Shown here: positions 2,689 to 21,338 of the stretch, piece after piece | Position numbering within the stretch: the stretch's first letter is position 1 | How the letters are laid out: every line of letters starts with the position of its first letter | Source: an uncultured virus (IMG/VR IMGVR_UViG_3300046479_000175) | Lineage: Duplodnaviria; Heunggongvirae; Uroviricota; Caudoviricetes | Direction: 5' to 3' (one strand) | Length of the DNA stretch: 64,000 nucleotides | Virus record (IMG/VR): IMGVR_UViG_3300046479_000175 | Notes under the pieces: model-generated | The model's input: the letters and a program-made list of their open reading frames with translations, nothing else | Told to the model about the DNA's origin: nothing | Databases searched by the model: none | Made by a program: the position numbers and the translations under genes

Positions 2689-2754
2689 CCGTCAAGGGCG
2701 ACGCCCTCCGGGTTTGCTGCGCAAAAAGTCTTCGACTTCGCGACCCTCTGACGG
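2689..2754. other. branched hairpin element (candidate ssDNA signal)
   Basis: CCGTCA-AGGG...CCCT-C-TGACGG encloses three mini-hairpins: CCC-TCC-GGG, TTTGC-TGC-GCAAA and AAGTC-TTC-GACTT. Confidence 0.6.
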
Positions 2755-2908
2755 ATCACCCCGCTCACACCTTCCAATGATCCCGGCATCAGAGATGCCG
2801 GATTCGACCATTCTCCGAGTTCTGGGGGTAGAGATGAAGCTGCGCGTTACGCACGACTGTCTGTGCAACCGTATCGAGTTCAACAAGGTTTCTTAACGGC
2901 TCAGATCA

Positions 2909-3712
2909 CTATTTTAGAGTTACTGTAATTGATACGTAGTTGTTATAGTTCTTCCTCAGGTGTGTTTCCTGAGTTTCGAACACTGAGTTCCTACGTTCTT
3001 TACCATAAGACACCCGGCGCATTAAGCGTCTGTTGATACCATCGGCCGCTAAGAGGTTTTCCACAAGGCCTGCGCCATCGTCCGCCAAGGCAAGCGCCAT
3101 TTCAGATGAAACGCCCTCATCGACGTTGGAATAAATGATAACTTCCTGCACGGAGTCACCGAGACTGGCGATCCAGTCAGCATTCGTCTGTACTGCCCGC
3201 TTAACATCATTAGTTACCACATAGTCAGGACTCGACGTTTCACTACGCTTATCATATGAGCTTCCAAAATAGATCGTGACGGGTCCATGGACGGTCTTGT
3301 TGCTATTGGGTTGGACAGTAGTGGTTGCTTTTGCGGGGAGAGGTTGAGTAATCACTATTGCAGGTGTGAAGAAAAATGTGAGAATGAAAAAACCAACAGC
3401 ACCAGTCGCCCGCACAGCCACTCCCTTCCCGCTCCAATTGACATGCAGCGCTCCTGGTATCGTCGCTCCCAATACCGCCGTGGCAAATGCGAGCAGGATT
3501 CTGACAAGTATTACGAGATTTGGATCAGAGAACGGTTGGTTCCTGACTACAAGGAAACCAATTAAACCGACTATTGTGACCGCTGCTGTCGCGGAGACAA
3601 TTCGCTCCCAAAGCCGGGGGTGGTAGTCGGCAACGGTCAAGGAAGGTTCTGGTTCTTGTGGCCTGTTCGCCTTCATTCGTGAGCAACATCTTAACATCTG
3701 AATCATGGGCAA
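2909..3712 (-). CDS. membrane protein (about 3 TM) with a C-terminal OmpA/Pal-like domain
   Basis: Hydrophobic N-terminal helices; TIYF...NADW...VDEGVSSEMALALA...LLAADGINRRLMRRVSYGKER resembles Pal/OmpA_C. Confidence 0.7.
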   Translation of the reverse strand: MPMIQMLRCCSRMKANRPQEPEPSLTVADYHPRLWERIVSATAAVTIVGLIGFLVVRNQPFSDPNLVILVRILLAFATAVLGATIPGALHVNWSGKGVAVRATGAVGFFILTFFFTPAIVITQPLPAKATTTVQPNSNKTVHGPVTIYFGSSYDKRSETSSPDYVVTNDVKRAVQTNADWIASLGDSVQEVIIYSNVDEGVSSEMALALADDGAGLVENLLAADGINRRLMRRVSYGKERRNSVFETQETHLRKNYNNYVSITVTLK

Positions 3713-3744
3713 ATTGAGAGCGATTAGTAAAGCGACTTGGACCG

Positions 3745-4638
3745 CTACCGGAGTACATTGAAGTCCGGGTCGGGTCCTGGCGTGAACACCATTCGCTTGT
3801 AGCCGTCTTTCAGCATCCCGCGGTGATAAGCGATAAAGCGTGATAGAACCTGCTCTTTAGTATCCACGAATACTTCGTCCGTTTGTTTGTCCCCTTCGAA
3901 CGTCTCGAAGCTGTAGCGTGGCCCTTTTTCAAGGTCCCAAAGCCGCACGACAGCGGTGATCCACTTTCCTTGCTTGTCGTACCGGGCATAGGAAAGTCCA
4001 TTCGGCCGCTGTACCTGCTGGTCATTATCTAGGACCCACATTGTGTGCAGGGGAAAGTCGGCGGAGGCTGATACTACTTTGGTAAAGTCGGGGCGTTTGC
4101 CCAGAGCTGGCGGCCGAAACGGTTCTCCGTAGATCGTTCTAATTAGCTGTTCGTATTCGCTCTCCTTATAGGGTTCGCCAGACAGGTCAACACCAACTCT
4201 GCCCTTTAAGTAAATTGGAGTCGAGTCTTGGAACGAGCCGTTCCTTAACACAGGAATAAATTTATCAATAGTGAAGCTGTCTGCAAGTTCGGCAGAAATG
4301 GCACCGGACTCGTAGCCGACGCCCCCTAACCGATTATCCGCTCGGTATTTATAGTTCGGTGTGGCGACTACGATTACGAAATCACTCGTCGAGACGGCTT
4401 GCTCCATAAAATGGAGCCTTTCTTGGCCGGGATGCAGATGCCAACGATCAAGGATGACTTGTATTCCGCTTTCGCCTTGAAGCCTGGTTGCAAAGTCGAG
4501 TATCCATGCCTTGTGTGCATCATCATCCCAAGAGTACGAAACAAAAACGCGGGGCACATCGGGAATGCGTTCGGGCAATTTTATCGGTGGTCGTAAGACG
4601 TCGTCAGACGAAGGAGGCATGCGGTCATCCTTAAGCAC
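3745..4638 (-). CDS. TIR/SEFIR domain protein
   Basis: PRVFVSYSWDDDAHKAW...VILDRWHL.PG...FMEQAV..SDFVIVV.TPNY...GGVGYE (putative catalytic Glu)...KFIPVLR. Confidence 0.9.
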   Translation of the reverse strand: MLKDDRMPPSSDDVLRPPIKLPERIPDVPRVFVSYSWDDDAHKAWILDFATRLQGESGIQVILDRWHLHPGQERLHFMEQAVSTSDFVIVVATPNYKYRADNRLGGVGYESGAISAELADSFTIDKFIPVLRNGSFQDSTPIYLKGRVGVDLSGEPYKESEYEQLIRTIYGEPFRPPALGKRPDFTKVVSASADFPLHTMWVLDNDQQVQRPNGLSYARYDKQGKWITAVVRLWDLEKGPRYSFETFEGDKQTDEVFVDTKEQVLSRFIAYHRGMLKDGYKRMVFTPGPDPDFNVLR

Positions 4639-5086
4639 GGCGGCAAATGGATGCAGTTCTGTCGCTTGCTAGAAATTATAGTTGCATCTGAACCGCATCA
4701 ATCGGAATGATCGGCTCTGGCCCTATCAACGCAGCGGCGCAATTCTATGAAATCGACCGTCCTGATCAGATCGCCGATTTCCGTGACTTGCTCAACAACG
4801 GCCTTCGTACCCACTTCGCGCCAGCGGTCTGCGGCTCCCCAAAAGCTCTGATATGTTTCCGGCTCCATGCCTGGTACAGTGACGCGATAAAATTCGGTCA
4901 TATTGGGCGCTCTCCTACGATGGCCCGGACAAGAGGAGCCGGATGTCTGTCCAATTAACGACCCGCGCGGATTCAAAATATATGGACGGCCGGTGTAAGA
5001 GTTTATCATTCAAAGGAACTGTTTGAGTATCGGCTCAGATTTCACGACTTCGCACTGGGGGAATTGTAGTCGAATCGCCTCCCGGC

Positions 5087-5132
5087 GACACGAGCACGCC
5101 TGCATCAGCGCTGCGCGCGGCAGGCTCGTGTC
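5087..5132. other. long imperfect hairpin (candidate ssDNA signal)
   Basis: GACACGAG..CCTGC..GCGC-TGC-GCGC.GCAGG-CTCGTGTC. Confidence 0.5.
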
Positions 5133-5167
5133 AAAAGACACAATTTGTTTAGCGGGGAAAAATGATG

Positions 5168-5196
5168 TTGATTTTTATATGGCCCTCGTCCATAAT
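5168..5196 (+). promoter_or_regulatory. sigma70-like promoter with embedded operator; probably a leaderless transcript
   Basis: TTGATT-N17-CATAAT, 8 nt before ATG 5205; contains TATGGC-N5-TCCATA. Confidence 0.55.
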
Positions 5197-5204
5197 CCGC
5201 CGCC

Positions 5205-5696
5205 ATGAAGGCAGCTTTGTCACACCGCACAGCCGTACAGCTCTTCAGCCGATGGAGAAGGGCTAAAGAGATAACCATCTGTCGCGCCGCCGCCCTGTTT
5301 TGCGTGAGCGGTTCTCAGGTGGCCAAATGGGAGTGGTACGAAGATCCCATACCCGCATACGTGTTCGTCGCAATTGAAACAATTCAGAACGTCAACATCA
5401 ATGTTGGGCGCATTCATTATGTCTACAAACTGACGGACGCGAAGACGGGCCAGTTCTATTACGGGGCTCGCTCATGCTATGGAAGAGCCGCAGATGATGC
5501 GTACTCAGGAAGCGGCGCATGGAAGGAGCGCACCCCCGATCTGGGCATATCCCTGATCAAGGAAATACTGAGCTTTCATCCGAGCCATAATGCAGCGGTA
5601 CTGACGGAGAACGGCCTTCTTAGGAAACATCGGAATCACCCGCTTTGCGTCAATCGACAAGCGGGGGGAGCCCGCAAAAGGTCAGTCGTATGCTGA
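5205..5696 (+). CDS. HTH fused to a GIY-YIG (Seg-like) endonuclease
   Basis: N-terminal AAALFCVSGSQVAKWE; HYVYKLTD..TGQFYYGARS...DAYSGSG. Confidence 0.75.
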   Translation: MKAALSHRTAVQLFSRWRRAKEITICRAAALFCVSGSQVAKWEWYEDPIPAYVFVAIETIQNVNINVGRIHYVYKLTDAKTGQFYYGARSCYGRAADDAYSGSGAWKERTPDLGISLIKEILSFHPSHNAAVLTENGLLRKHRNHPLCVNRQAGGARKRSVVC

Positions 5697-5881
5697 CACC
5701 TCACCAAATCCATAGCCTCCGCACACGCCTCAAGCTGACTGCCGATCTGTTCGCCGAGAGCCTTGGCCTTATTGGTAAATATCGAGCGCTTACTGTTTAT
5801 AAATGGGAATCTGGCTCCAAGAAGCCGGGGCCACAAACCGTCCTCCTGATGAAGTCTTTGGCTCGCAATCCCCACAAATAA
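5690..5881 (+). CDS. XRE-family HTH regulator
   Basis: MLTPHQIHSLRTRLKLTADLFAESLGL...TVYKWESGSKKP. Confidence 0.85.
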   Translation: MLTPHQIHSLRTRLKLTADLFAESLGLIGKYRALTVYKWESGSKKPGPQTVLLMKSLARNPHK

Positions 5882-5906
5882 GCAACTTTATTTCGTCGAT
5901 TCTCTA

Positions 5907-5935
5907 TTGACCCCTATATGGCTTTGGGCCATAGT
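5907..5935 (+). promoter_or_regulatory. sigma70-like promoter with palindromic operator
   Basis: TTGACC-N17-CATAGT; palindrome TATGGC-N5-GCCATA at 5917-5933. Confidence 0.6.
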
Positions 5936-5959
5936 ACGCCATCAACTCTGGAGAACCCA

Positions 5960-6244
5960 ATGCCCGTCGAATTCATACTGGACCCCGCAATTCAAGCCAT
6001 CATCGAGAGACGGATGGCGTTCAACTGGCCAGCCTTCGCCGTCGGAGCCTACGTGGGAATCCGTTATAAGCAAAACGCTCATGGCCGTATCACCGCGATC
6101 TGCGCCAAGGGCAACACGGACCGCCACGCATCAACCAACGCATTCGGCGTTCTCAAAATCAGGATGGACGACGGCACCTTCCGCTACGAGCATCCAGAAC
6201 ATCTCTTCACGGCAACTCCCCAGCAACTCAAGCTTGTCGGCTGA
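5960..6244 (+). CDS. phage-type hypothetical protein
   Basis: GGAG RBS then ATG; first gene of a tightly packed operon. Confidence 0.6.
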   Translation: MPVEFILDPAIQAIIERRMAFNWPAFAVGAYVGIRYKQNAHGRITAICAKGNTDRHASTNAFGVLKIRMDDGTFRYEHPEHLFTATPQQLKLVG

Positions 6245-6247
6245 ACC

Positions 6248-6520
6248 ATGAACGCTGTTCTCAAATCCTTCGCCGACATCAGCGGAACCCTTCACAATAT
6301 GACGTCGTACGCCGACGCCCTCACAGCCGCCATCCGCCGCAAGGGCGACCTCGAGATTGATGGGCTCATATTCCGCCGTCGCACCGACATCGAGATCCCC
6401 ACCGATCATTTCTCGACCGGACGCCACACGATGATCTATCAGATGGACGGTACAGGAAAACAGTACCGCGTGATGATCGAACCGGTGCTGGAGACGCATC
6501 AGCCTAGGGAGATTGGGTGA
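6248..6520 (+). CDS. hypothetical protein
   Basis: Packed operon. Confidence 0.55.
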   Translation: MNAVLKSFADISGTLHNMTSYADALTAAIRRKGDLEIDGLIFRRRTDIEIPTDHFSTGRHTMIYQMDGTGKQYRVMIEPVLETHQPREIG

Positions 6521-6807
6521 TGACCAGCGACGTTCCCTTTTATGTGGTGAAGGATGAGCAGACGTTGACAGGTCTGCCGCAATTCCTGCACGGGCTCGGC
6601 TTTCAATACACAGCCCATGAAGATGAGTTCGACAAAGGCGGCAATCCGATATTCCGCCTCTACTACGATAAATACCCGAATAAGGATCATGTATGGGGCG
6701 TGGAGAAGCGCGGTATTGTCGTTGTGCGTCGCAAGGAATGGGTCCAACAGGTTAAGGATGCTATTCAAGCCGAGATCAAGAGATACGAAGCGGAGTACGC
6801 AGCATGA
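6517..6807 (+). CDS. hypothetical protein
   Basis: Stop/start overlap. Confidence 0.6.
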   Translation: MMTSDVPFYVVKDEQTLTGLPQFLHGLGFQYTAHEDEFDKGGNPIFRLYYDKYPNKDHVWGVEKRGIVVVRRKEWVQQVKDAIQAEIKRYEAEYAA

Positions 6808-7013
6808 GCACCACTGCCAACAAATCGCCGCCATTAGGTCGGATAGGACAGCTCGCCGAAAATCTACGGTGTGCAGCAAGGAATGTCGCCAACGAAATGG
6901 TGGAAACGCCGGGTGGTGACGCCTATGAGTATCGCGGCGGAACGAACGCTGTCGACACCCTGATCGAAGCACTCAATGATCTTGAGCACTTTCAAGCAGG
7001 GTGGCGTGAATGA
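6804..7013 (+). CDS. hypothetical protein
   Basis: ATGA overlap. Confidence 0.5.
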   Translation: MSTTANKSPPLGRIGQLAENLRCAARNVANEMVETPGGDAYEYRGGTNAVDTLIEALNDLEHFQAGWRE

Positions 7014-7591
7014 CAGGCGCGCTCGACAAAGCCCTCGACGCCGTGGCGAAGCTCGCGCCGCAGGACAATGAGCCGCCGCGAGCGCCAGAACAGAAAATCA
7101 TTATCAAGACGAAAGGCGAAAGAGAATGTGATGAATGCGCCGAGCCCGCCACACGTCGGTGCACATTCTTGATGCCACATTATCGGTCGAATCCTGCATC
7201 GAGCGGATATGGAAAAGACGATTGCAGTTATTGCTCGGATGCGGAAGTATTCGTTTGCGACACCTGCAAGCCTGAAACTCCGTCTGGAATGTGCTCGGAA
7301 TATTCGACCTTCTACAAGAAGAGGTTTCCACATCTATTTGTTGTCTGGAGAGAAAAGGAAGCCCCCGATCTGTTGCGCGAGAGGGATAGATTATTGACGC
7401 AGTTTTGCAGGGCCGAAATTGATATATCTGCGCTCCAAGCCGACAACGCGAGGCTGCGGGAAGAATTGCGGCGCATATCTGCCCTCGATCACACAGCAAA
7501 CATTGGCAAGCCCCATGATCCGACGTATTTTATTCGGACGGCTCAAGGCATAGCCCGTGCCGCCCTTGCGCCTACGGTGACGAAAGAATGA
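7010..7591 (+). CDS. Cys-rich (putative Zn-binding) phage protein
   Basis: CDEC, CSYC and CDTC motifs; ATGA overlap. Confidence 0.6.
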   Translation: MTGALDKALDAVAKLAPQDNEPPRAPEQKIIIKTKGERECDECAEPATRRCTFLMPHYRSNPASSGYGKDDCSYCSDAEVFVCDTCKPETPSGMCSEYSTFYKKRFPHLFVVWREKEAPDLLRERDRLLTQFCRAEIDISALQADNARLREELRRISALDHTANIGKPHDPTYFIRTAQGIARAALAPTVTKE

Positions 7592-7767
7592 AAAACACCG
7601 CAAACAATGAGGCCACGGATCTCGCCCAAGCCCTCGAAAGCAGATTTGGCCATGAGATTGACGACGATCAACCCATCAACGGTGCAGAGGCTGTTGACGC
7701 GATATGTGAACTTGCGCCAATGTGGCGCTCGATCTTGAAGAAAGGACCGCAACCGACTCAAGGATGA
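7588..7767 (+). CDS. 59-aa hypothetical protein
   Basis: ATGA overlap; hand translation MKNTANNEATDLAQALESRFG... Confidence 0.45.
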   Translation: MKNTANNEATDLAQALESRFGHEIDDDQPINGAEAVDAICELAPMWRSILKKGPQPTQG

Positions 7768-7998
7768 CATTTCATGCAGCGGCAGTGCGGAAGGACGCAC
7801 CTGTTTAGGGCTACGAGGCCAAGCGGGTTCTACTGTCAGCTCCATCGTAGAGCCGGTGTCAAGTCCGGCCCGCTGCATCAAGTGCCACAACTTTAGGAAA
7901 TGAGACGGCCATGCTTATCCGGTTAGAACCCAAGGATGCTAAACGTTGAACCTCCGCATGTAGGTCACATGCATACGGCAACAGCAAAGGAGAATAAC

Positions 7999-8274
7999 AT
8001 GTCTTACTCATTTGGGGTTCAAGCCCCGACCAAAAAAGAGGCCGAAGAAAAGGTCTCGCACGAATTGGTGAAGGTCATTGAAAGTCAATCAATGCACAAA
8101 AAGGATGCCGATCAAGCTGCGAATGCTGCTTTCAGTATGATTGCGCTCCTGCGCGAGGATGAAACCAAGGACATTTATGTCTCGGTGTCGGGATCGATTG
8201 GATGGGAGGCGGACGAAAGCCTCAACTCTGCTTCCGTCAACGTTCACGCCTACCTCAGTTCGAAGACGGCGTGA
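7999..8274 (+). CDS. hypothetical protein
   Basis: AAGGAG RBS; MSYSFGVQAPTK... Confidence 0.6.
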   Translation: MSYSFGVQAPTKKEAEEKVSHELVKVIESQSMHKKDADQAANAAFSMIALLREDETKDIYVSVSGSIGWEADESLNSASVNVHAYLSSKTA

Positions 8275-8466
8275 GACCAACGGTTCGCCCACGGCTGCTA
8301 CCGACAACGGGCCGTGGGCGATAACCGGATAAGCATGGAGACGACTATGGGTTGGCCTACAGCAGTTGAGCATATTGGTTATGCCTTCGCGGCAGCGGGA
8401 GCATTTTCCGCCTTTGTCATCGCCGTTTTTTCAGCCCTTCGTTAACCCCTCGCAACAGGAAACATC

Positions 8467-10290
8467 ATGAGCACCACCGCCGAATCCCTCACACTGCCCC
8501 TCAACAAGCTTGTGCCGTGGAAGGGCAACGTGCGCCGGACCGACCCGAAAGCCGGGTTGGACGAGCTGAAAGCCTCCATCGAAGCCCACGGTCTTCTGCA
8601 ATCTCTGGTCGTCCAGAAGGACAAGGGCGGCATGTACGCGGTGATTGCTGGGCGCAGACGCCTGTTTGCCCTCCAAGCTCTGGCCAAGGCCGGGAGCATC
8701 AAGGCGAGTTATGCGGTCCCATGCAGCGTCATGGACGCCGAGGCCGACCCGAAGGAAATCAGCCTCGTCGAGAACTTCCAGCGCGAGCAGATGCACCCCG
8801 CCGATGAATTCGAGGCGTTCAAGGCTTTGAGTGATGGCGGCCTGTCGGCAGCCGAAATCGCAGGACGGAACGGCATTACGGAACGCCACGTTGAGCAGCG
8901 TTTGAAACTCGCCAATGTGAGCCCGAAGCTCATCAAGGCCTACCGGGATGGCGAATGTTCCCTCCAGCACATGATGGCCTTCGCCGTGACCACGGACCAT
9001 GAAGTACAGGAGCGCGTCTGGCGCGACATGCCAGCCTACCGCCGTAACGACCCCGAAGCCGTGCGCGACCAGCTTGTGCAGGGGGAGATTTCTGCGAAGG
9101 ACCGGCGCGTTAAGTTCGTCGGTCTCGCAGCCTATGAGAAAGCCGGTGGAACCATCCGCCGCGACCTCTTTGTTGACGACGAGGACGGCGCGTTCATTCT
9201 CGACAAGGAACTGCTCGCTACCCTCGTAACGAAGAAACTCGAGAAAATCGCGGAGGGCGTCACGAAGGAAGGATGGAAGTGGGTTGAGGTCCGGGATAAC
9301 TTTGAGCACGCCGAATGGTCGAAATGCACCCGCCGTCACGAGGAGGCTGCTCCCCTTCCCGCGAAGGAACAGGCCAAGCTCGACGCGCTCAACGCCGAAC
9401 TTGAGGCCCTCCTAGAGGCCGACGACACGGATGGTGAGAACCCGGAAATCGACAAGCTGCAAGCGAAGATCGACAAGTTCGAGGAGCGTCCTCGCTCGTG
9501 GCAGCCTGACACGCTGGCGATTGCCGGTGTCGTCGTCTCCGTAGGCTTCAATGGCAAGCCCGAAATCGTTCGCGGCCTCGTGAAGCCTGAGGATGCGCCG
9601 AAGCAGCCGAAGAAGAAGTTGGCGACGAACGGCAGCGGGGAGCCCATCGAGGAACCGAGCCTCTCGGCCAGCCTCGTGCAGGACCTCACGACCCACCGCT
9701 CCGCAGCCCTGTCAGCCGTTCTCAAGGACAAACCTGAGGTTGCGCTCGCGGCGCTCGTCGAAGCTCTGGCTGGTCAGGCGTTCTATCAAGGCTACGGCCA
9801 CAACAGCTCCGTAAAGATCAGGCTGGACGAGGCGAACCTCCAAAGCATCGAGGGCTCGAAAGCCCATGCGGACCTCACAAAGGCGCACGAGAAATGGCTC
9901 GCCAAACTTCCCGGGAAAGAGGAAGAGCTGTTCGCGTGGTGCCAGAAGCAAAAGCAGCCGGTCCTTCTCGACCTTCTGGCTTACTGCGTCTCCCGCTCCG
10001 TCGATGCAATTGCGACGAAGAACGACAACCTCGAGCATGCTCGCTTTAAACATGCGAATGAGTTGGCGAAGGCAGTAGAGCTCCGGATGGAGGATTGGTT
10101 TTCGGCCTCTGCCGAGAACTACTTCGGGCGCGTCAGCAAGGGTGCGATCATCGACGCCCTCAAGGAAGCCAAGGTCGAGATCACCCCGGCGATGGAGAAG
10201 GCGAAGAAGGGCGAGCTGGCCGCGATTGCCGAGGAGAAGGTCGGCAAACCCAAGTGGCTTCCCGACTTATTGCGGGGGCCAGCGCCATGA
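8467..10290 (+). CDS. long ParB/RepB/Spo0J-family protein
   Basis: NVRR...ELKASIEAHGLLQSLVV...VIAGRRRL.AL...SLVENFQREQMHPADEF, followed by an HTH; 607-aa plasmid-type architecture. Confidence 0.92.
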   Translation: MSTTAESLTLPLNKLVPWKGNVRRTDPKAGLDELKASIEAHGLLQSLVVQKDKGGMYAVIAGRRRLFALQALAKAGSIKASYAVPCSVMDAEADPKEISLVENFQREQMHPADEFEAFKALSDGGLSAAEIAGRNGITERHVEQRLKLANVSPKLIKAYRDGECSLQHMMAFAVTTDHEVQERVWRDMPAYRRNDPEAVRDQLVQGEISAKDRRVKFVGLAAYEKAGGTIRRDLFVDDEDGAFILDKELLATLVTKKLEKIAEGVTKEGWKWVEVRDNFEHAEWSKCTRRHEEAAPLPAKEQAKLDALNAELEALLEADDTDGENPEIDKLQAKIDKFEERPRSWQPDTLAIAGVVVSVGFNGKPEIVRGLVKPEDAPKQPKKKLATNGSGEPIEEPSLSASLVQDLTTHRSAALSAVLKDKPEVALAALVEALAGQAFYQGYGHNSSVKIRLDEANLQSIEGSKAHADLTKAHEKWLAKLPGKEEELFAWCQKQKQPVLLDLLAYCVSRSVDAIATKNDNLEHARFKHANELAKAVELRMEDWFSASAENYFGRVSKGAIIDALKEAKVEITPAMEKAKKGELAAIAEEKVGKPKWLPDLLRGPAP

Positions 10291-12646: not shown

Positions 12647-12705
12647 CCGAATCCGATTCCCCGCGGCGTAGGATCGATCTTGAGATTAGCTGGAATGCGT
12701 AGCCT

Positions 12706-13056: not shown

Positions 13057-13063
13057 CTTAATC

Positions 13064-13848: not shown

Positions 13849-15084
13849 ATGGCACGTTTCACCTCTCGTTGTATTCGCCCGTTTTTCCTCCTTGTCACCA
13901 TCCTGTCGGGCCTCGCGCCGCCGTGCTGGGGGGCAGAGCACGTGAGTTTGCGCAATGGGTTCGACTTGTTTTGCGATCACGTTGTTGTCAAGGGTGACCA
14001 CTATCTCTTGTATGTTGATCAGGCGGGCAGCAGTTTTCTCGAAGTGGCGCGGGCCGACATCGTTTCGATCACACATATTTCGTTTGAGAATGAAGCTACG
14101 TCCCAAGCCGCCGACCCTCCAACAGCCCAGGCATCCTCACCGATTTCGGGCAACGTACAAAGTGCTGGACTGCGGAAACTCATACAACGGTATTCGTCGG
14201 TAGCCGACCTACGCGGGCTCGGCCAAGTTCGCGTTACTTGGTTGAAGCAGGAACTCGTGGACGCGCTCACGGATGCGTCAGCTGAGGCCGACGCTTTAAC
14301 GCCGGAGCAACTCACCGATCTCAAGCGGCAAACCTTCAGACAACTCGACCTTCAACACGATTTGGTGTTTCTCGTATCCTTCATACCTGCGCGTGGTTTT
14401 TCTCTGAGCCATCCGGATTGGGACGCTCAACATCGCGCGCCGAAGCTTCAACTCATTGCGTCGGACGATACACCGCAGACTCCAACTTATTGGAGTCCTA
14501 GCCTTCAGTCTCCCGACAGCAAGCTGGCTTGGTTCTCCGGTCCAAGCGTCGCGTACGTCCACTTCAATGCGCATAATCCGGACAGAACGCGGGTGGTCTG
14601 GGGAAGGGGGTTCGCTCTGACCCTCAATAACTATGTGTATGACGAGAACAATAGCAAACTCTATTCCGCGGCCATGAGGTTCAGCTTTTACATCTCTGCA
14701 CTTCCACTGCAAACGTTGGTCACGCCAGGGCTGCCCGCCGAGGATCAGGCGGCGGTTTCAATGTCATTGGTGGACACTTCCAGCCGTACTACTTCGGGCG
14801 CTTATACGGGAAGCCGCTCGTCTCAGAGCAATGCTGCTACAGGGGTCCAGACGAATAGCTATCAGGCTCCGACACAATACACGCAGGCCCAACCGCAATA
14901 CGAGCAGGCCCCAACGCAATACGCCGGGCAGTACGGGTCAAACGGCGCAGAAAACGCCCTTGGGGCCTCGGTCAATAACGGGACACCTTCGGTCGTTTAC
15001 CAATTTGTATTCGGGGTCATAATGAGTCTAGCCGAATCGCGCACAGCCAAGCTGATCGAGGAGCTAGCGCCCTTCGAATTCTGA
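13849..15084 (+). CDS. secreted hypothetical protein with QAPTQY repeats
   Basis: Signal-peptide-like N-terminus; three imperfect 21-nt repeats at 14863-14922. Confidence 0.65.
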   Translation: MARFTSRCIRPFFLLVTILSGLAPPCWGAEHVSLRNGFDLFCDHVVVKGDHYLLYVDQAGSSFLEVARADIVSITHISFENEATSQAADPPTAQASSPISGNVQSAGLRKLIQRYSSVADLRGLGQVRVTWLKQELVDALTDASAEADALTPEQLTDLKRQTFRQLDLQHDLVFLVSFIPARGFSLSHPDWDAQHRAPKLQLIASDDTPQTPTYWSPSLQSPDSKLAWFSGPSVAYVHFNAHNPDRTRVVWGRGFALTLNNYVYDENNSKLYSAAMRFSFYISALPLQTLVTPGLPAEDQAAVSMSLVDTSSRTTSGAYTGSRSSQSNAATGVQTNSYQAPTQYTQAQPQYEQAPTQYAGQYGSNGAENALGASVNNGTPSVVYQFVFGVIMSLAESRTAKLIEELAPFEF

Positions 15085-15096
15085 CGTATTTCGCCC

Positions 15097-15122
15097 AAAC
15101 CGTCCGCCACGGCGGACGGTTT
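15097..15122. terminator. perfect 12-bp inverted repeat, probable terminator
   Basis: AAACCGTCCGCC-AC-GGCGGACGGTTT just after the stop codon at 15084. Confidence 0.6.
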
Positions 15123-15155
15123 CACTCGTGACTCGTCGGGTTATCATGGGGTGCC

Positions 15156-15719
15156 ATGAAGCGAGCCCTGCTCTTTTGCGGTGTCGCCATCCTCTTTTTT
15201 GTCCTCGGGAGCGCCTGTACCTATCTGGTCCTGCGGTCCCCCTCGAATACCAACCGATGGATTCAGGTGACCTCCGACGCTTACGGCATTGGGTTCAACG
15301 ATAAGGTTGTCGACGTCGACTTCTCACTCCCCAAAACCAAGAAACCGGCAGGACGAATCAAATTTCTTAATCGCGATGATCGTATTCAGCTTGGCTATAT
15401 GCTGACCCTCCCAGTCGAATCCAAGCCCACGTCCTCTCTTCCCGAGAAATACACGCGACTACGAACTCTCCCCGATGGCACGCAGATCGGTCCCCCTGAC
15501 CAAGTCGAGTACGAGGGAACTTTTGAATTCACACTCAAAGATGCCGACGGTTTCGTCCTTAAGAAACTTTCCGGCCCCAAAGAATATTTGACTGCTGGTT
15601 CACAAAACCAACTTCAAGGGACTGCCGAGGAGACAATACCTCCGTCCATCGTCGAGCGCACCAAGATCGTCATGGTCGACTTCTCGGCGACGGATTGCAT
15701 TCCCTGCGATCCGCAATGA
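15156..15719 (+). CDS. exported hypothetical protein
   Basis: N-terminal hydrophobic anchor. Confidence 0.65.
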   Translation: MKRALLFCGVAILFFVLGSACTYLVLRSPSNTNRWIQVTSDAYGIGFNDKVVDVDFSLPKTKKPAGRIKFLNRDDRIQLGYMLTLPVESKPTSSLPEKYTRLRTLPDGTQIGPPDQVEYEGTFEFTLKDADGFVLKKLSGPKEYLTAGSQNQLQGTAEETIPPSIVERTKIVMVDFSATDCIPCDPQ

Positions 15720-15776
15720 GCGGCAGCGAAAGCGAGAGATACAATTAGACCGCCGCAGGAAAGGCGGAGGCCGACT

Positions 15777-16433
15777 ATGAAAGTACGCCTGCACGCAGCC
15801 TTATTGATCCTGGCATCTTTTGCACACGCCCAACAGACGACCGAAGTCCGGTTCTCCGGGACCGCAATCAACACGACGGACCCCGATAAGCCGTTAGCCG
15901 CCCCAATCGAGATCATTCTCAATCACGACGGATGCAAGCTCACAATATCGCCCCCGCTTAGTGGTTCGGGTCATTGCATTATCAAAGGCTACGACGAGAA
16001 ATCGAAGCAGATCGAGATTCTTTCCGAGGGTCCCCCGTTCATCACATGGACCGGCACCCTGAAAGGGAATCTCGCCAGCGGCACTTACAAGATTGATGCC
16101 AGCAATGAGAGCGGTTCGTTTTACTTTGCTGTCCTGAAGCAGGCCGCCGCCCAGCTGCCTCCTCCTCCACCACCCGTGCGGGACTACATTCCCGTTGCTC
16201 CGCGAAGCAGCTGCTCGCCGGCAATCGAGTCCCACATCGACGGAGATATTGAGGGGTGGGACGGAGAGACAATCTTCAAGCTGGATAACGGTCAAATCTG
16301 GCAGCAGTCTGTCTACGCTTACAGGTACTTTTACGCATACCACCCTGAGATAACGATCTTCGAGACGTCAGGGGGCTGTCGAATGAAGGTCGAAGATCAA
16401 AGTGAAACCGTGATCGTTAATCGTATCAAGTAA
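15777..16433 (+). CDS. secreted hypothetical protein
   Basis: Signal peptide (AHA|Q), poly-Pro linker, C-terminal IESHIDG..EGWDGETIFKLDNGQIWQQ. Confidence 0.7.
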   Translation: MKVRLHAALLILASFAHAQQTTEVRFSGTAINTTDPDKPLAAPIEIILNHDGCKLTISPPLSGSGHCIIKGYDEKSKQIEILSEGPPFITWTGTLKGNLASGTYKIDASNESGSFYFAVLKQAAAQLPPPPPPVRDYIPVAPRSSCSPAIESHIDGDIEGWDGETIFKLDNGQIWQQSVYAYRYFYAYHPEITIFETSGGCRMKVEDQSETVIVNRIK

Positions 16434-16442
16434 GGATGGGAA

Positions 16443-16997
16443 ATGGGCAACATCGATATAAACCGTCACAATGTTGGCCGCATTGCCGAACGCATCGTCT
16501 CGAATGAGCTCGAATCCCGAGGCTTTCGCGTCAGTGACCTGAACAAAGAAGGGACATCTGCGAACGCAGATCTGCTTGCGGCGAAAGATGGCAAGACATG
16601 GCAGATTCAGGTAAAAGGAGCCTCTGAGGGCGACAGCGGGTGGTGGGTGAATTACGGATACGCCCAACAGGAAACCATCGATGGTACGAAGAAAATGTAC
16701 AACTCGGTCGAAAGCTTCTACCGCGCTCAGATTGTCATCCTCGTGTCGGTGAAGGCAGCCAACGATTACAAATGTGTGGTTCTGCCTGTCATCGCAGCAG
16801 AGAAGGCCGCGCAACTCAATCTCGACCACTCGTTCCGCAACCTGAAGAGGGACGGATCGAAGAAGAAGCCGGGAAAGGTCTGGACCTACCTCGAATACGA
16901 CCCAAAGGTGCGAGATCAGTCTCGCTTGCCAATCCTCAAAGCCGAGCGCGACATCATCGCTAAATACCTGGACAATTGGGACATTGAAAGGATTTGA
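16443..16997 (+). CDS. PD-(D/E)XK nuclease
   Basis: G..AE..V..EL..RGF.V......ADLLA.KDG....IQVKG. Confidence 0.75.
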   Translation: MGNIDINRHNVGRIAERIVSNELESRGFRVSDLNKEGTSANADLLAAKDGKTWQIQVKGASEGDSGWWVNYGYAQQETIDGTKKMYNSVESFYRAQIVILVSVKAANDYKCVVLPVIAAEKAAQLNLDHSFRNLKRDGSKKKPGKVWTYLEYDPKVRDQSRLPILKAERDIIAKYLDNWDIERI

Positions 16998-16999
16998 AT

Positions 17000-17206
17000 A
17001 TGCCCGAAATTCACCTCCTCAAGGGGATCGAAATCTGGCTCGTAGTGATCGCCGTGCTGCTTTACATCATGGTGATGCAGCTCTGGGCTATCGCCAAGCG
17101 CTTGCGGCGGCATTTCCCTACAGACAAAGAGGCCGATACCGACTGGGCAATCCGAGACCCTATGGGCCATTGGGAAGCGCATAAGAACGACAAAAGTAAG
17201 AAATGA
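17000..17206 (+). CDS. small single-TM protein
   Basis: Hydrophobic helix. Confidence 0.5.
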   Translation: MPEIHLLKGIEIWLVVIAVLLYIMVMQLWAIAKRLRRHFPTDKEADTDWAIRDPMGHWEAHKNDKSKK

Positions 17207-17307
17207 AGTATGGCAAAGCAATAGTCAGCATTCTGGTCGCGATTGCATTCGTCTCGATAGCGAAAGCACTGTGGTGCCATCGGAGGAACTCGAAAGTTAC
17301 GGGAGCA

Positions 17308-18129
17308 ATGTCCGAGCAGCTGCCGCCTTGCATCTTTTGCAATAACGAATCGGGAAGCGAAGAACATTTCTGGCCAGCTTGGGTCCACCGGTTCATCAAG
17401 GAAAACGGAATCGACCTTGGTGGTCTCAGGGTCCAGTTGGGAAACCAACCTGAGACGATTACCGACGATCTGGAAAAGACGATCAACACCGTTTGCAACA
17501 CGTGCAACAACACATGGATGAGCGAGGTCGAAGACAAGAATCGTCGACGATTTCAATACATGTTGAAGAACGACCCCCTCACCATCGACCCCGGCGGAAT
17601 GAAGATCATTACGGAATGGGCAGTCCTTCGGGCGATCATGCTCGATTCTGAGAAGCCATCCATCGGCCAAGAGAACTTCTACACGCCCGATGAGCGTATC
17701 CCTATGCGCGAGCGTCTCGAAATTCCCAAGCGGACCAGAGTCTGGTTTGGCGCGCTGGATGGGTTTCACTTGGGCGGCCATGGAACCGACTTCACCATCG
17801 AGGCGGTGACGCCTGAAGGAAATAGAGTGCGCATTGGAACCGGCTGCTACAACACGATCTACATGGGCTATCTCGTGACACAGGTGGTCACCGAACATCT
17901 TTACCCGCAATACGAAGGCCTAGGAATTGCAGAAGTTCAGCCGCCACCCAGCATCTGCGATGAGAGGCTGGTTCAGATCCATCCGCGACCGCGTCAGTTG
18001 AAGAAGTTCGACTGGCCAACGACACCCTTCACCAACGGCGATCCGGACGGAATTGGGTATCTGATGTACCGCTGGAAAAAGGACGCTAAGCAAGTGTCGA
18101 CGGTGACGAAGAACGGGGTTGTCGAATAG
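17308..18129 (+). CDS. HNH-like endonuclease
   Basis: CIFC....SEEHFWPAW...VCNTCNN.WMS.VE; GGGAG RBS before ATG 17308. Confidence 0.75.
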   Translation: MSEQLPPCIFCNNESGSEEHFWPAWVHRFIKENGIDLGGLRVQLGNQPETITDDLEKTINTVCNTCNNTWMSEVEDKNRRRFQYMLKNDPLTIDPGGMKIITEWAVLRAIMLDSEKPSIGQENFYTPDERIPMRERLEIPKRTRVWFGALDGFHLGGHGTDFTIEAVTPEGNRVRIGTGCYNTIYMGYLVTQVVTEHLYPQYEGLGIAEVQPPPSICDERLVQIHPRPRQLKKFDWPTTPFTNGDPDGIGYLMYRWKKDAKQVSTVTKNGVVE

Positions 18130-18252
18130 ATATACGCTCCGCTTCGCTACGCTGCCTGTTGTGCTGCTGCCGCAGGTCTTCCAAAGCCAGACTTAAAGAA
18201 CTCGAGGAGGGTTTGGACTATTACGGCGCATCCACGCAAGAAGGAATGTAAC

Positions 18253-18720
18253 TCAACCGACGACCCACTTCTCTGACTGTATGACATCCAACACATTCTT
18301 GCAGTCGATACCGAAGTGGGCACAGACATCGGGAATGTTTGGCTTCTTCGCGTTTCCAGTCGGCTTTTCCTCAGTTACGAGCGTAATGCCACGGACGTGT
18401 GCCAACGCGATAACGAATGTGTCGGCGGACGTGTCCTGTTTTTTCAGGCCGACCAGCCGAGGAAACTCGGCGAGGACTTTTGCGGCCTGCTCTTGCACGT
18501 TGTCATCGATCTCCTGAAACATGACACCCTTTCGATCCTTTAACCAGCCGTGCAGTTCGTCTGAACGCTTTTTGGTTTCGATGAAGACTTCTACCGGCGC
18601 GATCATGCGCCCTTCGCTTATGAGATCGGCCATGCGATCCCAAAACTTCGGGAAGTTTTCTTGCGGGTAGCGCTCCTGCCAGGCTGCAATCAGAGCGCTC
18701 GTATCGACGCAGTAGACCAT
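18253..18720 (-). CDS. DUF4411 PIN-domain protein (putative toxin)
   Basis: YCVDTSALI...FPKFW...ADTFVIALA....LVTEE....IPDVCAHFGI. Confidence 0.9.
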   Translation of the reverse strand: MVYCVDTSALIAAWQERYPQENFPKFWDRMADLISEGRMIAPVEVFIETKKRSDELHGWLKDRKGVMFQEIDDNVQEQAAKVLAEFPRLVGLKKQDTSADTFVIALAHVRGITLVTEEKPTGNAKKPNIPDVCAHFGIDCKNVLDVIQSEKWVVG

Positions 18721-18732
18721 GCTTGCGCGGAG

Positions 18733-19926
18733 TTATTCCGCAGGCTGAAACGCTGCCCTTTCCAGCGCAGGAATGTGCTTCACCTTCGCGCCGAGATAGC
18801 TAGAAACGTCGTTGAGGGTAATGCGCTTGTCGTAATAACTGCGGAACACCAGCCGTGTAAAACCTCGTCCATTACGGCTCATCAGCAGAACCGACCGTTT
18901 GATCTTGACAGCCTTCTTTGGTGCCGCTGCTTTTGCCGCAGCCGCAGCTTCATATTCTTCTTTGAACTTCTGTCGGCGCGCCATGTAGAAATCCCATGAA
19001 GCGCGCTTGAGGGCGACAAGGCGGAGCAAAAATGCCTCTGGACTGACTCCGATGCCGTACGCCATTCTGCGAAGCTCATCATCGTTCCATTTGCGCTCGC
19101 CCGGCGGCCTCACTTGAGGGATCGACAAGACAAGGTCGCGGGGCATCAGCGCGGCGGCTGCAACTGAATCGCAGAAGCGCTCGATCTTCTGCTCCTGCGG
19201 CGTCCCGCCGTCGCCGTTCGTCAACGCGCTCTCGCCCAGCATAATGTGCACCAGTTCGTGAATTAACGTGTAGCATTTGCCGCCTTGGCTGTAGTCCTTA
19301 CCGTTGACCACGATCACGGGAATCTCGTGCCGGGCGATGGCAAACCCGCGCATTTCATTGAGCTCAACGCTGTTGTGGGGGCCTCCGACCGTAAAAACCA
19401 AGACGTCTCTCTCTTCCAGCTTGCGCCGCCAGAAGTCGAATGCTCGGCTGCCTTTAGCGGCTTTTCGCTGATCGTCCTCCTTGACACCAAGGAACGCTCG
19501 AATCCGGTCACCGACAACATCGGCATCCTCGGTGACATCCGTTTTTAGCTTGAACACCAGCACTGGGTCGCCCAAGTCGTCATGAAGGTCGAGCGCAAGC
19601 TCCCTCCGCTGATGCGCATTACGAATTTGCAAGGCGAGGTCAGCACTGATCGTCCGGTCCGCTACGTCGGGCAGGCGCCTGAAATCACGGAGAGGGGCGT
19701 AGTCGGTCGGCGGTGTCGGGAGATAAAAGAAAGCCAGCGGGAAATGGTATTTGCTGGCCAGATTTCGCAGTTGACTGATGGTGGGAGCATCGTTTCCCGC
19801 CTCCCACGCCCGCAGGGCGTCGGGTTCGATGTTCAAAGCCTTGGCGGCATCGTCGACCGTCATCTTGGCGCGCGTTCGTGCCCAGCCAAGCAGTTCGGCT
19901 TTGATCTTTGCTTTGACACTCGCCAC
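18733..19926 (-). CDS. XRE-HTH plus ImmA/IrrE metallopeptidase (putative antitoxin)
   Basis: LLGWAR...WEAG..APT..QL; YTLIHELVH (HEXXH)...ERFCD.VAA..LMP. Confidence 0.92.
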   Translation of the reverse strand: MASVKAKIKAELLGWARTRAKMTVDDAAKALNIEPDALRAWEAGNDAPTISQLRNLASKYHFPLAFFYLPTPPTDYAPLRDFRRLPDVADRTISADLALQIRNAHQRRELALDLHDDLGDPVLVFKLKTDVTEDADVVGDRIRAFLGVKEDDQRKAAKGSRAFDFWRRKLEERDVLVFTVGGPHNSVELNEMRGFAIARHEIPVIVVNGKDYSQGGKCYTLIHELVHIMLGESALTNGDGGTPQEQKIERFCDSVAAAALMPRDLVLSIPQVRPPGERKWNDDELRRMAYGIGVSPEAFLLRLVALKRASWDFYMARRQKFKEEYEAAAAAKAAAPKKAVKIKRSVLLMSRNGRGFTRLVFRSYYDKRITLNDVSSYLGAKVKHIPALERAAFQPAE

Positions 19927-20038
19927 GGCACGACCAATCCTGTTCGTCAGTCTATCGCGAACAATCTAGTAGTGGCCACGCAACTTCGCGCTACCGATTG
20001 CCGGCCAACTCGAACGCCAGAGCGCCCTGTCCTGTTGG

Positions 20039-20172
20039 GCTGCAGCCGCAGCTAGTTAAACTTGCATCGGCTTCGCCGATCTGAGTACGGTGCTTGGACG
20101 CCTTCGGCGTGGCACCTCGCGGGCCGTAGGCCCACACTTGCCAGCGAGTGAACGTCCTCACGTCATCGTGAG
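20039..20172. other. cluster of hairpins upstream of the methylase (candidate ssDNA promoter or ssi)
   Basis: ATCGGC-TTC-GCCGAT; GGTGC..ACGCC-TTC-GGCGT..GCACC; CTCGC-GGGCC-GTA-GGCCC..GCGAG; CTCACG-TCAT-CGTGAG. Confidence 0.55.
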
Positions 20173-20315
20173 TTTCCCGAATATCACACACCCAAATTCC
20201 TGTGGAGAAAATGCAGAAAGTGCTTGCAACCACGCAAGAACTTCGGCATAAGAAGCGGGCCACCCGGCGCGCAAACGCCGCGATGGCCCTAGCCACAACG
20301 AGGGGAAATCTCGCC

Positions 20316-21197
20316 ATGACTGACGCCGACCATAACGACACCAGCCCAACAGTTCAAGATCACCGTGACAGGGGCAGACCGCCCCCCGCCCAGATCGGAA
20401 ACGCCACCCTCTATAACGCCGACTGTCTTGAGATTCTTCCGTCCCTTCCCGCCGCGTCCGTAGACCTTATTCTGTCTGACCTGCCATATGGCACTACGCA
20501 AAACAAATGGGATTCCGTCATCCCACTCGCACCGTTATGGCGGGAATACAAACGCATCTCCAGGGGCGCAATCGTCTTGACGGCAGCGCAACCATTCTCA
20601 TCACAACTCGTCAGCAGTAATATCGAGATGTTCCGATATGAATGGATATGGGCCAAGAACAAAGCTTCTGGGCATCTCAATGCGAAAAAACGGCCCCTTG
20701 TTGCACACGAATCTATCCTCGTTTTCTCCCACGATGCGCCGCCCTATTTCCCGCAAAAATCATCTGGTCACAGGCCATCGAATTACGCGAAGCGGGTTAC
20801 CCACACGCCGAACTACGGCGCACAACGCTCGACGACATATGGAGGCGGAAACACAGATCGTTACCCAACCTCGGTATTATCCTTCCCAGTCCTCAATAAT
20901 GATTCTCCAGATCGCTATCACCCCACACAAAAGCCCGTGGAATTGATGGCCTATTTAATCGAGACCTACACCCGGGGGGGCGATACGGTGCTCGACAATG
21001 CGATGGGATCAGGTACGACAGGCGTTGCGTGTGCACTGCTCAACCGTCGTTTTATCGGCATCGAGCGCGACTCGGCGTATTTCCCAATATGCCTCTCGCG
21101 TCTGAGGGGAGAACCAGTTCAAGTTGGGGTGCACACCTCCCAGCAAGCGCCTTCCGACCAGACGACCATTTTCGACTGGCTCGGCGCGGCGTCATAA
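20316..21197 (+). CDS. orphan N4/N6 DNA methyltransferase (beta class)
   Basis: DLPYG catalytic motif, HPTQKPVEL, VLDNAMGSGTT. Confidence 0.93.
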   Translation: MTDADHNDTSPTVQDHRDRGRPPPAQIGNATLYNADCLEILPSLPAASVDLILSDLPYGTTQNKWDSVIPLAPLWREYKRISRGAIVLTAAQPFSSQLVSSNIEMFRYEWIWAKNKASGHLNAKKRPLVAHESILVFSHDAPPYFPQKSSGHRPSNYAKRVTHTPNYGAQRSTTYGGGNTDRYPTSVLSFPVLNNDSPDRYHPTQKPVELMAYLIETYTRGGDTVLDNAMGSGTTGVACALLNRRFIGIERDSAYFPICLSRLRGEPVQVGVHTSQQAPSDQTTIFDWLGAAS

Positions 21198-21225
21198 ACG
21201 TGCACCGACACAGAATAAAGAACAC

Positions 21226-21338
21226 AAGCTGTGGAGATGACGCGCCTGATGGAAAACGGGGAAATCACTTCGTGATTCCCGCCGTTTACCACAGGACGCT
21301 TGGACAACGCTGCGCGTTGCCCACATCTCCGACAGCTT
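21226..21338. other. 113-nt branched stem-loop between convergent genes (candidate single-strand origin)
   Basis: AAGCTGT-GGAGATG...CATCTCC-G-ACAGCTT closes two arms: CCTG..AAACGG.GGAAATCAC-TTC-GTGATTCCC.CCGTTT..CAGG and TGG.CAACGC-TGC-GCGTTG.CCA. Confidence 0.65.

Follow-up and report, generated by a model that had tools for sequence, protein, structure and literature searches.

A predicted three-way-junction element of Acidobacteriota and three clusters of C-GNA-G mini-hairpins in a putative conjugative leading region from peat

Introduction

Four intergenic hairpin elements, numbered here 1 to 4 by position, lie in the first 22 kb of IMGVR_UViG_3300046479_000175, an IMG/VR record of an uncultured virus (Caudoviricetes) whose whole 64,000-nt stretch was analysed and is called the window throughout. 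The original prediction took the four for one dispersed family of branched hairpins with C-GNA-G triloops, defined by structure rather than by sequence, that would fold on the transferred minus strand of a conjugating element and act there as single-stranded DNA promoters of the Frpo type or as priming signals. We report here that C-GNA-G hairpins are enriched in this region far beyond shuffled controls, that the minus strand is the probable transferred strand, and that the four elements divide: element 4 belongs to a predicted folded family, R1, which recurs in Acidobacteriota chromosomes and insertion sequences, and elements 1-3 have no convincing relatives.

Results

The first 22 kb of the window resemble the leading region of an element that is conjugative or mobilisable (Table 1). 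All nine C-GNA-G triloops of the original prediction, eight on the minus strand and one on the plus strand, were found in place and are closed by C-G; two further C-GNNA-G tetraloops of the minus strand (loops 2677-2680 and 5080-5083) flank elements 1 and 2. Element 1 sits between convergent genes, 21 nt past the stop of the plus-strand gene at 1769-2668; element 2 between divergent genes and upstream of the 13-kb block of plus-strand genes beginning at 5205; element 3 between the divergent HTH/M78 and methylase genes; and element 4 between the convergent methylase and HNH genes, 54 nt beyond the HNH stop on the minus strand. Element 2 consists of a 5-bp C-GGGA-G hairpin, an imperfect hairpin of 46 nt (5087-5132) that ends in a C-GCA-G loop, and a further 5-bp hairpin whose loop is at 5133-5136. 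The four had been said to share little primary sequence; similarity among them is in fact undetectable, and they are not one homologous family. The branching ascribed to all of them is present in elements 1 and 4, but elements 2 and 3 are rows of separate hairpins.

Table 1. Elements, loops, transfer origin and genes of the window (positions in the 64,000-nt stretch; assignments of genes, origin and transferred strand are predictions).
Feature	Position	Strand	Description
Element 1	2689-2754	minus	Four-way junction: outer stem enclosing three mini-hairpins (loops GGA, GCA, GAA)
Element 1, loop TCC	2707-2709	minus	3-bp stem; minus strand reads GGA
Element 1, loop TGC	2718-2720	minus	5-bp stem; minus strand reads GCA
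Element 1, loop TTC	2731-2733	minus	5-bp stem; minus strand reads GAA
Extra hairpin next to element 1	2672-2685	minus	5 bp, C-GGCA-G tetraloop (loop 2677-2680)
Element 2	5075-5142 (originally 5087-5132)	minus	Three hairpins in a row, unbranched
Element 2, loop TGC	5112-5114	minus	4-bp stem; minus strand reads GCA
Element 3	20039-20172	minus	Row of six separate hairpins, unbranched
Element 3, loop TTC	20072-20074	minus	6-bp stem; minus strand reads GAA
Element 3, loop TTC	20103-20105	minus	5-bp stem; minus strand reads GAA
Element 3, loop GTA	20126-20128	plus	5-bp stem
Element 4	21219-21340	minus	Three-way junction: outer stem, C-GCA-G arm (21311-21313), long C-GAA-G arm (21269-21271)
Element 4, loop TTC	21269-21271	minus	6-bp stem; minus strand reads GAA
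Element 4, loop TGC	21311-21313	minus	6-bp stem; minus strand reads GCA
oriT core, MOBQ-type	22075-22110	minus	Upstream of MobA/MobL relaxase gene
Second oriT-region hairpin	22141-22175 (approximate)	minus	Six C/G pairs around GGAT loop; found by eye
Type IV coupling protein gene, 5' part	3-860	minus	PF02534
Gene preceding element 1	1769-2668	plus	
TIR/SEFIR-domain gene	3745-4638	minus	Inside leading region, defence-like
Block of ~20 genes pointing to oriT	5205-18129	plus	Includes ParB-like, DUF7768, DUF1643
ParB-like gene	8467-10290	plus	607 aa
DUF4411/PIN and HTH/M78 peptidase gene pair	18253-19926	minus	Defence-like; HTH/M78 gene at 18733-19926
N6/N4 DNA methyltransferase gene	20211-21197	plus	PF01555, E 5e-27; template is the transferred strand
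HNH endonuclease gene	21393-21998	minus	PHROG 374, E 4.3e-40; PHROG 8790 'restriction endonuclease', E 1.9e-20
Accessory gene	22097-22456	plus	119 aa; in an operon with the relaxase gene; homologues upstream of relaxase in L118, L119, L127
MobA/MobL relaxase gene	22471-23481	plus	PF03389, E 1.9e-31

Enrichment was assessed against 300 dinucleotide shuffles of 1-22080, counting hairpins with stems of at least 5 bp. Seven minus-type C-GNA-G hairpins were observed against a shuffle mean of 0.45, a count that none of the 300 shuffles reached, and two plus-type hairpins against a mean of 0.54, reached by 32. Triloop hairpins of all kinds numbered 35 with 24.3 expected (reached by six shuffles), and because nine of the 35 are C-GNA-G, the excess falls almost wholly on this class. 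The rest of the window held two minus-type and one plus-type hairpin (shuffle means 0.96 and 0.94). A baseline of 276 other loci (2.6 Mb), in agreement with the shuffles, yielded 114 such hairpins, or 0.044 per kb with both strands taken together; clusters of at least two within 150 nt occurred three times in the 22 kb and twice in the 2.6 Mb, a density about 180 times higher. Of the 14 perfect triloop hairpins in the 3,434 intergenic bases of the region, six are minus-type C-GNA-G and one is plus-type, to which the two minus-strand C-GNNA-G tetraloops are added. The expected enrichment is thus borne out for motif and region; the strand bias by itself is modest, at 7:2 over the whole region (p 0.18) and 8:1 for intergenic tri- and tetraloops (p 0.039), and the strand argument is carried by four independent elements only.

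No other 120-nt stretch of the 64 kb is as structured as element 4, which has z-scores of -10.6 (minus strand) and -7.9 (plus strand). Folded with DNA parameters, as had been proposed, it is the only one of the four to fold far better than shuffles, elements 1-3 reaching z-scores of only -0.9 to -2.7. When 18100-23500 was compared by BLAST with 301 Acidobacteriota genomes, 16 genomes matched, nearly all of the matches fell on 21218-21339, and three genomes carried 10-14 copies each. A covariance model built in this analysis, R1, matched element 4 with 83.6 bits (E 1.9e-19, minus strand only, filters off) and nothing else in the window at E <= 0.01. It found the family in 40 of 151 Acidobacteriota genomes and in one of 151 Pseudomonadota genomes (Fisher p 2e-12), the richest genome holding at least 26 copies.

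The R1 element is about 100 nt long, and its three helices are all based on GTGGGAA/TTTCCAC, each containing a conserved G·T(U) wobble. In an alignment of 36 distinct copies, 89.8% of the cells are paired, as against 41-51% with the partners slid; 29 of 36 pairs show double changes, and none of 500 shuffles reaches the observed values. Helices 1, 2 and 4 lay outside the model behind the alignment, yet covary. The wobble G·U, one pair per main helix, is kept in 19, 29 and 25 of the 36 rows and changes mostly to A-U. The consensus folds with -14.8 kcal/mol and 18 pairs on the minus-type strand, and with -8.1 kcal/mol and nine pairs on the other, where it is weaker because the G·T/G·U positions would be A·C mismatches. 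Judged from these wobble pairs, the R1 fold is selected on one strand, corresponding to the minus strand of the window, and for element 4 the claim of minus-strand folding stands. Element 4 itself keeps all three helices and both wobble pairs; G·T counts in the window alone, four on the minus against two on the plus strand, are uninformative. Arm P2 of the family ends in C-GCA/GGA/GAA-G in 17 of the 36 rows and never in TNC, so that GNA loops are a trait conserved within the family. One alignment row (L332) and two tally entries (genomes G053 and G028) come from data flagged as unpublished, and the conclusions are independent of them.

R1 copies in 20 loci had no Rfam match at E <= 0.1, and the window gave no Rfam 15 match at the gathering score and, within 1-22300, nothing at the elements at E <= 1. 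By these comparisons, the element 4 family is a predicted three-way-junction element that is uncatalogued in Rfam and largely specific to Acidobacteriota. No member of it turned up in 47 other loci (689 kb), of which 36 were anchored on ParB-like or relaxase genes of related elements. Elements 1-3 had no R1 match at E <= 10 with filters off, so that the notion of one dispersed family fails; so does, for element 4, that of a signal defined by structure rather than sequence, given that many chromosomes of Acidobacteriota, and insertion sequences too, hold sequence homologues of it that have no connection with conjugation.

In the three genomes with 10-14 copies each, the R1 element comes after the stop of an IS3-type (rve) transposase gene and before the insertion sequence ends; over about 1.2 kb, these copies are 98-100% identical. 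Three different Acidobacteriota genomes (G134, G073 and G289; loci L280-L315) have in common a near-identical insertion sequence of the IS3 family, at 10-14 copies per genome, in which the transposase frame continues across the folded element and stops about 30 nt past it. Among 27 loci examined, eight have neighbouring genes of insertion sequences, namely rve (three), IstB/IS21 (four) and IS110 (one); the remaining neighbours are unrelated, e.g. AraC, ferredoxin, PAP2, esterase and FtsX. R1 is thus carried by insertion sequences from at least three families, in the space between their last gene and their terminus. According to crude calls of open reading frames (ORFs) at 30 loci, 19 have an opposite-strand ORF that either overlaps the element or ends no more than 125 nt away, and at seven a same-strand ORF ends upstream within 150 nt.

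Many R1 copies carry, by eye, a CTACTAC(G/T)AC-like tag just past the outer stem on the opposite strand (GTAGTAG on the fold strand), which recalls the GTAG tag of REP elements and is absent from element 4. A REP/RAYT reading of R1 was rejected: PF01797 occurs in 22 of 40 genomes with the element and in 72 of 111 without it (Fisher p 0.34), and several high-copy genomes (G043, G073, G086 and G134) have none. Also set aside was a GGGRAAATC word common to element 4, the methylase 5' region and the transfer origin, which is not above chance (reached by 10 of 100 shuffles). At locus L337, a tmRNA gene (18-371; RF00023, 198 bits) lies 1.1 kb from an R1 copy, which suggests that this copy sits in an island integrated next to ssrA.

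The folding of elements 1-3 is less distinctive. Element 1 folds with -17.9 kcal/mol on both strands (z -2.1 plus, -0.9 minus), element 2 has z -2.7 on both strands, and element 3 has z -2.6 on the plus and -2.5 on the minus strand; their whole gaps have z-scores of -1.0 to -1.8, that of element 3 being -1.0. Since element 1 received equal energies on its two strands, the DNA folding parameters seem not to credit GNA loops. Among the 301 Acidobacteriota genomes, element 1 had only short, weak, GC-rich matches and element 3 only scattered weak ones; matches to element 2 in other genomes were rejected as relatives, as they lie inside long ORFs and do not keep the hairpin. On 2500-22300, contigs of four peat runs are identical wherever they cover the elements, and therefore offer no variants on which pairing could be tested. 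Without convincing relatives, elements 1-3 appear to be orphan clusters of GC-rich mini-hairpins.

The lack of relatives and the marginal z-scores of elements 1-3, together with the carriage of the element 4 family in multi-copy insertion sequences, would suit a view of all four as chance structures or as decayed selfish hairpin repeats that are now functionless. We consider this highly improbable: the shuffles never attain the observed count, the stems are perfect over 5-6 bp, and element 4 retains its helices and wobble pairs.

All four elements lie in gaps where gene direction switches; clusters of GNA hairpins occupy four of six such gaps and none of nine co-directional ones (Fisher p 0.011). 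This distribution speaks for ordinary control at the level of double-stranded DNA or RNA, with elements 1 and 4 as terminators, elements 2 and 3 as operators or 5' leaders, and loop type and strand coincidental. The location of element 3 between an HTH/M78 regulator gene and the methylase gene, the 8 T among the 12 nt that follow element 4 on the minus strand and the lack of significance of the region-wide strand bias point the same way. A scan for intrinsic terminators, as GC-rich hairpins directly followed by a T-run, found none at any of the four elements; element 1 lacks a following T-run on both strands, and the R1 family has no conserved one. In element 3 no two of the five palindromes are the same, in contrast to an array of operators for a single regulator, the hairpin excess is confined almost wholly to the C-GNA-G class, and other gene-end gaps of the window are unstructured. 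Ordinary control of this kind as the whole explanation is, in our judgement, unlikely.

A MOBQ-type origin of transfer (oriT) was recognised upstream of the MobA/MobL relaxase gene, where an inverted repeat at 22090-22110 (9-bp arms, GCA loop on the minus strand) is followed by an 8-nt spacer and the nick motif TG/CGCCCT (22081->22075, slash at the nick). After the repeat the minus strand reads ATTAACTG/CGCCCT. The published MOBQ oriT consensus is NWACCNNTAAGTGCGCCCTYNN (PMC3832669); by eye, 11 of 13 positions are equal between TAACTGCGCCCTA of the window and the stretch TAAGTGCGCCCTY of that consensus (PMC3832669). The site thus has the inverted repeat, the spacer and the TAAGTGCGCCCT-like nick motif of MOBQ origins in the position proper to them. 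The nick 7-mer alone is not rare (14 in the window, 12.5 expected), and the case for the origin therefore rests on repeat, position and conservation: of 16 related relaxase loci examined, 10 have the order repeat, 5-6 nt, TGCGCCCT at 140-420 nt upstream of the relaxase gene, on the strand opposite to that gene. The repeat of RSF1010/R1162 is situated 5' of the nick and enters the recipient last. By analogy, we infer that the minus strand is nicked between 22081 and 22080 and transferred towards lower coordinates. With the origin on the minus strand, this would be the transferred strand, as the original prediction had it. The HNH gene would enter first, followed by element 4 at about 0.8 kb from the nick; next would come the methylase gene, then element 3 (about 2 kb), the gene block and, at about 17 and 19.3 kb respectively, elements 2 and 1. 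In plasmid F (NC_002483), ssb, psiB, ParB-like and methylase genes point to its oriT, the same orientation as that of the plus-strand block of the window.

A second GCGCCCT at 20022 (plus strand, adjoining element 3) was dismissed as an oriT, having no proper inverted repeat and consisting of a common 7-mer. The GGAT-loop hairpin near the origin recurs upstream of the oriT repeat in the relatives L118, L119, L122 and L126 with changed stem letters (by eye, without statistics), and may be a binding site of the accessory protein.

These results bear on a role of the elements in the entering single strand, where the mini-hairpins would fold, exclude the protein that binds single-stranded DNA (SSB) and resist nucleases, and so provide entry sites for primase or RNA polymerase or act as roadblocks, with element 4 as a co-opted copy. 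Beyond the identity of minus and predicted transferred strand, this is favoured by the enrichment of the motif in the region and by the 8:1 bias of the intergenic loops towards that strand. Elements 2 and 3 lie upstream of genes templated by the transferred strand, and elements 1 and 4 downstream of such genes. The oriT hairpin, moreover, acts as single-stranded DNA, and on the nicked strand it has a GNA or GNNA loop in the window and, by eye, in five of the ten relatives with the motif (C-GAA-G in L120, L121 and L122, G-GAA-C in L153, C-GCTA-G in L119). There are also precedents: RSF1010 ssiA, the N4 promoters and SSB exclusion as described in PMC13037366, and the F plasmid hairpin ssp2, which stalls complementary-strand synthesis (bioRxiv 10.64898/2026.01.09.698686).

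Against such a role stands the picture in other leading regions. Ten MOBQ relatives with the same oriT have three minus-type and two plus-type C-GNA-G hairpins on the leading side (66.5 kb), with five and four on the other side; 22 ParB-anchored loci have 15 and 21 in 412 kb, mostly within genes; and the leading region of plasmid F has three against one, with no cluster. C-GNA-G enrichment is thus no general property of leading regions. In a BLAST comparison with the leading region of F (L277), the four gaps gave only matches of 14-24 nt (E >= 0.009), and none of the elements has a Frpo-type long stem with promoter hexamers. The window proteins include no recognised primase or single-subunit RNA polymerase, with 59 scanned against Pfam and 19 each against PHROGs and NCBIfam, the window covering only part of the element; a protein Atlas search for a primase with two uncharacterised proteins gave no lead. 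Relatives of element 4 are mostly chromosomal or in insertion sequences, elements 1-3 fold little better than shuffles, and there are only four independent elements. A single-strand role for all four elements is therefore possible but doubtful.

In three MOBQ relatives (L153, L118 and L126), strongly folded stretches on the leading side are long simple hairpins without GNA loops. Those at L153:790-935 and L118:5465-5610 (minus), 1.1 and 4.2 kb from the nick motif, are near-perfect (z -8.1 and -5.5) and are candidates for Frpo-like or ssi-like (single-strand initiation) elements in those relatives.

As to the surroundings, the closest relatives of the ParB-like and relaxase proteins belong to metagenome-assembled Acidobacteriota genomes at about 50% identity, and the stretch was found in ten peat-metagenome DNA runs, with no RNA run among those listed for it, so that the host is taken to be an acidobacterium-like organism from peat. 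Relatives of the relaxase are annotated as MobQ or Ti-type TraA relaxases; a single-query search gave no match, and an alignment query gave 79 loci, the best at 50%. ParB-related loci (about 50% identity) have that gene alone in common with the window, methylase-related loci reach 54% (genomes) and 61% (metagenomes), and megablast of 1-22000 against plasmids found no match. The methylase ATG at 20211 is in frame behind GGAG. The HNH gene converges with the methylase gene, has the predicted transferred strand as its coding strand and would enter the recipient first. Should they be a restriction-modification pair, the arrangement would permit synthesis of the methylase ahead of the nuclease after transfer. 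The gene at 5205 is closely preceded by a sigma-70-like site, TTGATT-17-CATAAT (5168-5196).

A tailed-phage structural module (baseplate J, P22-type coat, portal-like DUF4055, terminase) occupies 29651-54175, near the conjugative genes, and the nearest virus record has 22% of the window's sampled words in common, none of them within 2500-22300. Another structured gap, at 8195-8340 just upstream of the ParB-like gene (z -4.85, minus strand), comprises a 10-bp stem and two hairpins without GNA triloops. A search for transposon-like terminal repeats flanking gene cassettes yielded nothing convincing.

Discussion

The reading we favour, and hold with about even confidence, is that the four elements are two different things sharing one kind of loop. 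The R1 family most likely serves at the RNA level as a gene-end module, i.e. an insulator, a terminator, a 3'-end structure or a small RNA, and element 4 would form the end of the HNH gene and keep it apart from the methylase gene that converges on it. Because the family is found at gene ends and in insertion sequences and folds on one strand, its presence beside oriT in the form of element 4 is most likely incidental to conjugation. Elements 1-3 may be boundary elements at the level of transcription or signals on the single strand in transfer, for instance sites for priming or roadblocks to replication. Single-strand signalling by these three is possible, and mechanistically reasonable in view of the mini-hairpin precedents, the stalling at ssp2 and the GAA and GCA loops in the oriT hairpins of this relaxase family.

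Several observations weigh against this division. C-GNA-G loops are stabilisers of DNA, and according to PMC13037366 controls with TTC loops are without that stability; a DNA-level role of the R1 family is therefore conceivable. The family has no conserved T-run, with means of 3.2 and 2.7 T in 12 nt on its two sides and runs of at least 6 T in four and two of 33 copies, and is therefore not a canonical intrinsic terminator. Structure is lacking in five further gene-end gaps of the window, of which three are convergent and two are not (z +1.0 to -1.2), so that a general habit of terminators at gene ends is not evident. Elements 2 and 3 are placed where single-strand promoters would be expected, upstream of the 13-kb block and of the methylase gene, both templated by the transferred strand, and no sigma-70-like site was found upstream of the methylase gene, a point that also favours the single-strand role. 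Finally, when element 4 is left out, five minus-strand hairpins remain where 0.45 are expected (Poisson p 1e-4).

A bolder proposal unites the four elements: C-GNA-G modules would be single-stranded DNA signals, acting by SSB exclusion, nuclease resistance, primase recruitment or polymerase stalling at every operon boundary of the transferred strand, with R1 as a portable version also carried in insertion sequences. We regard it as quite improbable.

Three results hold independently of what the elements do. A MOBQ-type oriT and its transferred strand are now placed in an element of a peat acidobacterium-like organism, from a phylum whose plasmid and integrative conjugative element biology is almost unexplored. 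R1 is a widespread predicted folded element new to Rfam, with strong covariation and strand-specific wobbles, that is carried in insertion sequences of unrelated families. The C-GNA-G enrichment on the transferred strand bears on whether leading regions outside the enterobacteria use single-strand signals other than Frpo; if elements 1-3 are inert, loop type and strand alone do not mark transfer signals.

Comparison with known systems

Like the Frpo and ssi sites of F-like and IncI plasmids, the elements are positioned in a leading region on the transferred strand, and elements 2 and 3 precede genes templated by that strand, including a methyltransferase gene, as in the anti-defence islands described in PMC11541004. 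Frpo is described there as a long imperfect hairpin whose stem rebuilds -35 and -10 hexamers and an UP element (PMC11541004). The window elements differ in lacking such a hairpin: stems in elements 1-3 have 3-6 bp, element 4 is a 113-nt three-way junction, and no sigma-70-like hexamer pair was found inside any of the four on either strand, so that the proposed Frpo-type promoters are not borne out. They differ further in having no similarity to the F leading region, which for its part has no C-GNA-G excess.

The mini-hairpins used by primases and polymerases are closer in form. According to PMC13037366, DNA mini-hairpins of the GCGAAGC type melt at 76.5 °C, resist nucleases, unlike controls with TTC loops, and bind SSB poorly; they occur at the G4 complementary-strand origin and in RSF1010 ssiA (CCGAAGG, bound by the RepB' primase), and the early promoters of the N4 virion polymerase have a 5-bp stem with a GGA or GAA loop. 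The window hairpins resemble these (PMC13037366) in their 5-6-bp stems and C-G-closed GAA, GGA or GCA loops on the strand that would be single-stranded during their action, and RSF1010 is also a MOBQ element. As in primase-type ssi sites, a hairpin with a GNA/GNNA loop stands on the template single strand, and a host primase could serve it. The geometry of N4-type promoters is likewise matched, a likeness known from stem and loop alone. The difference is that no gene for a cognate primase or a virion-type RNA polymerase was recognised in the window.

With REP, BIME and REPIN sequences the R1 family shares that it is short, folded and multi-copy, varies in copy number and lies just past gene ends in either orientation. 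It differs in being a three-way junction with long conserved sequence rather than a 20-40-bp palindrome, in occurring, in most high-copy cases, inside insertion sequences, and in having no link to Y1/RAYT proteins.

A nearer counterpart is found in ISPpu9 (IS110 family), whose small RNAs Ssr9 and Asr9 are described in PMC12288879 and PMC8450116. In both cases the insertion sequence carries, downstream of its transposase gene, a structured non-coding module of which extra copies exist elsewhere in the genome (PMC12288879, PMC8450116). R1, known from sequence alone, differs in that its fold is antisense to the transposase gene and in that it occurs in IS3, IS21 and IS110 contexts.

The transfer origin compares best with the MOBQ origins of RSF1010/R1162 and of Ti-type plasmids. 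It is set apart by its acidobacterium-like host from peat and by a nick site placed by analogy, and the comparison bears on the origin rather than on the four elements; it shares with them the inverted repeat, the short spacer and TGCGCCCT opposite the relaxase gene, a layout that is kept in relatives of the window.

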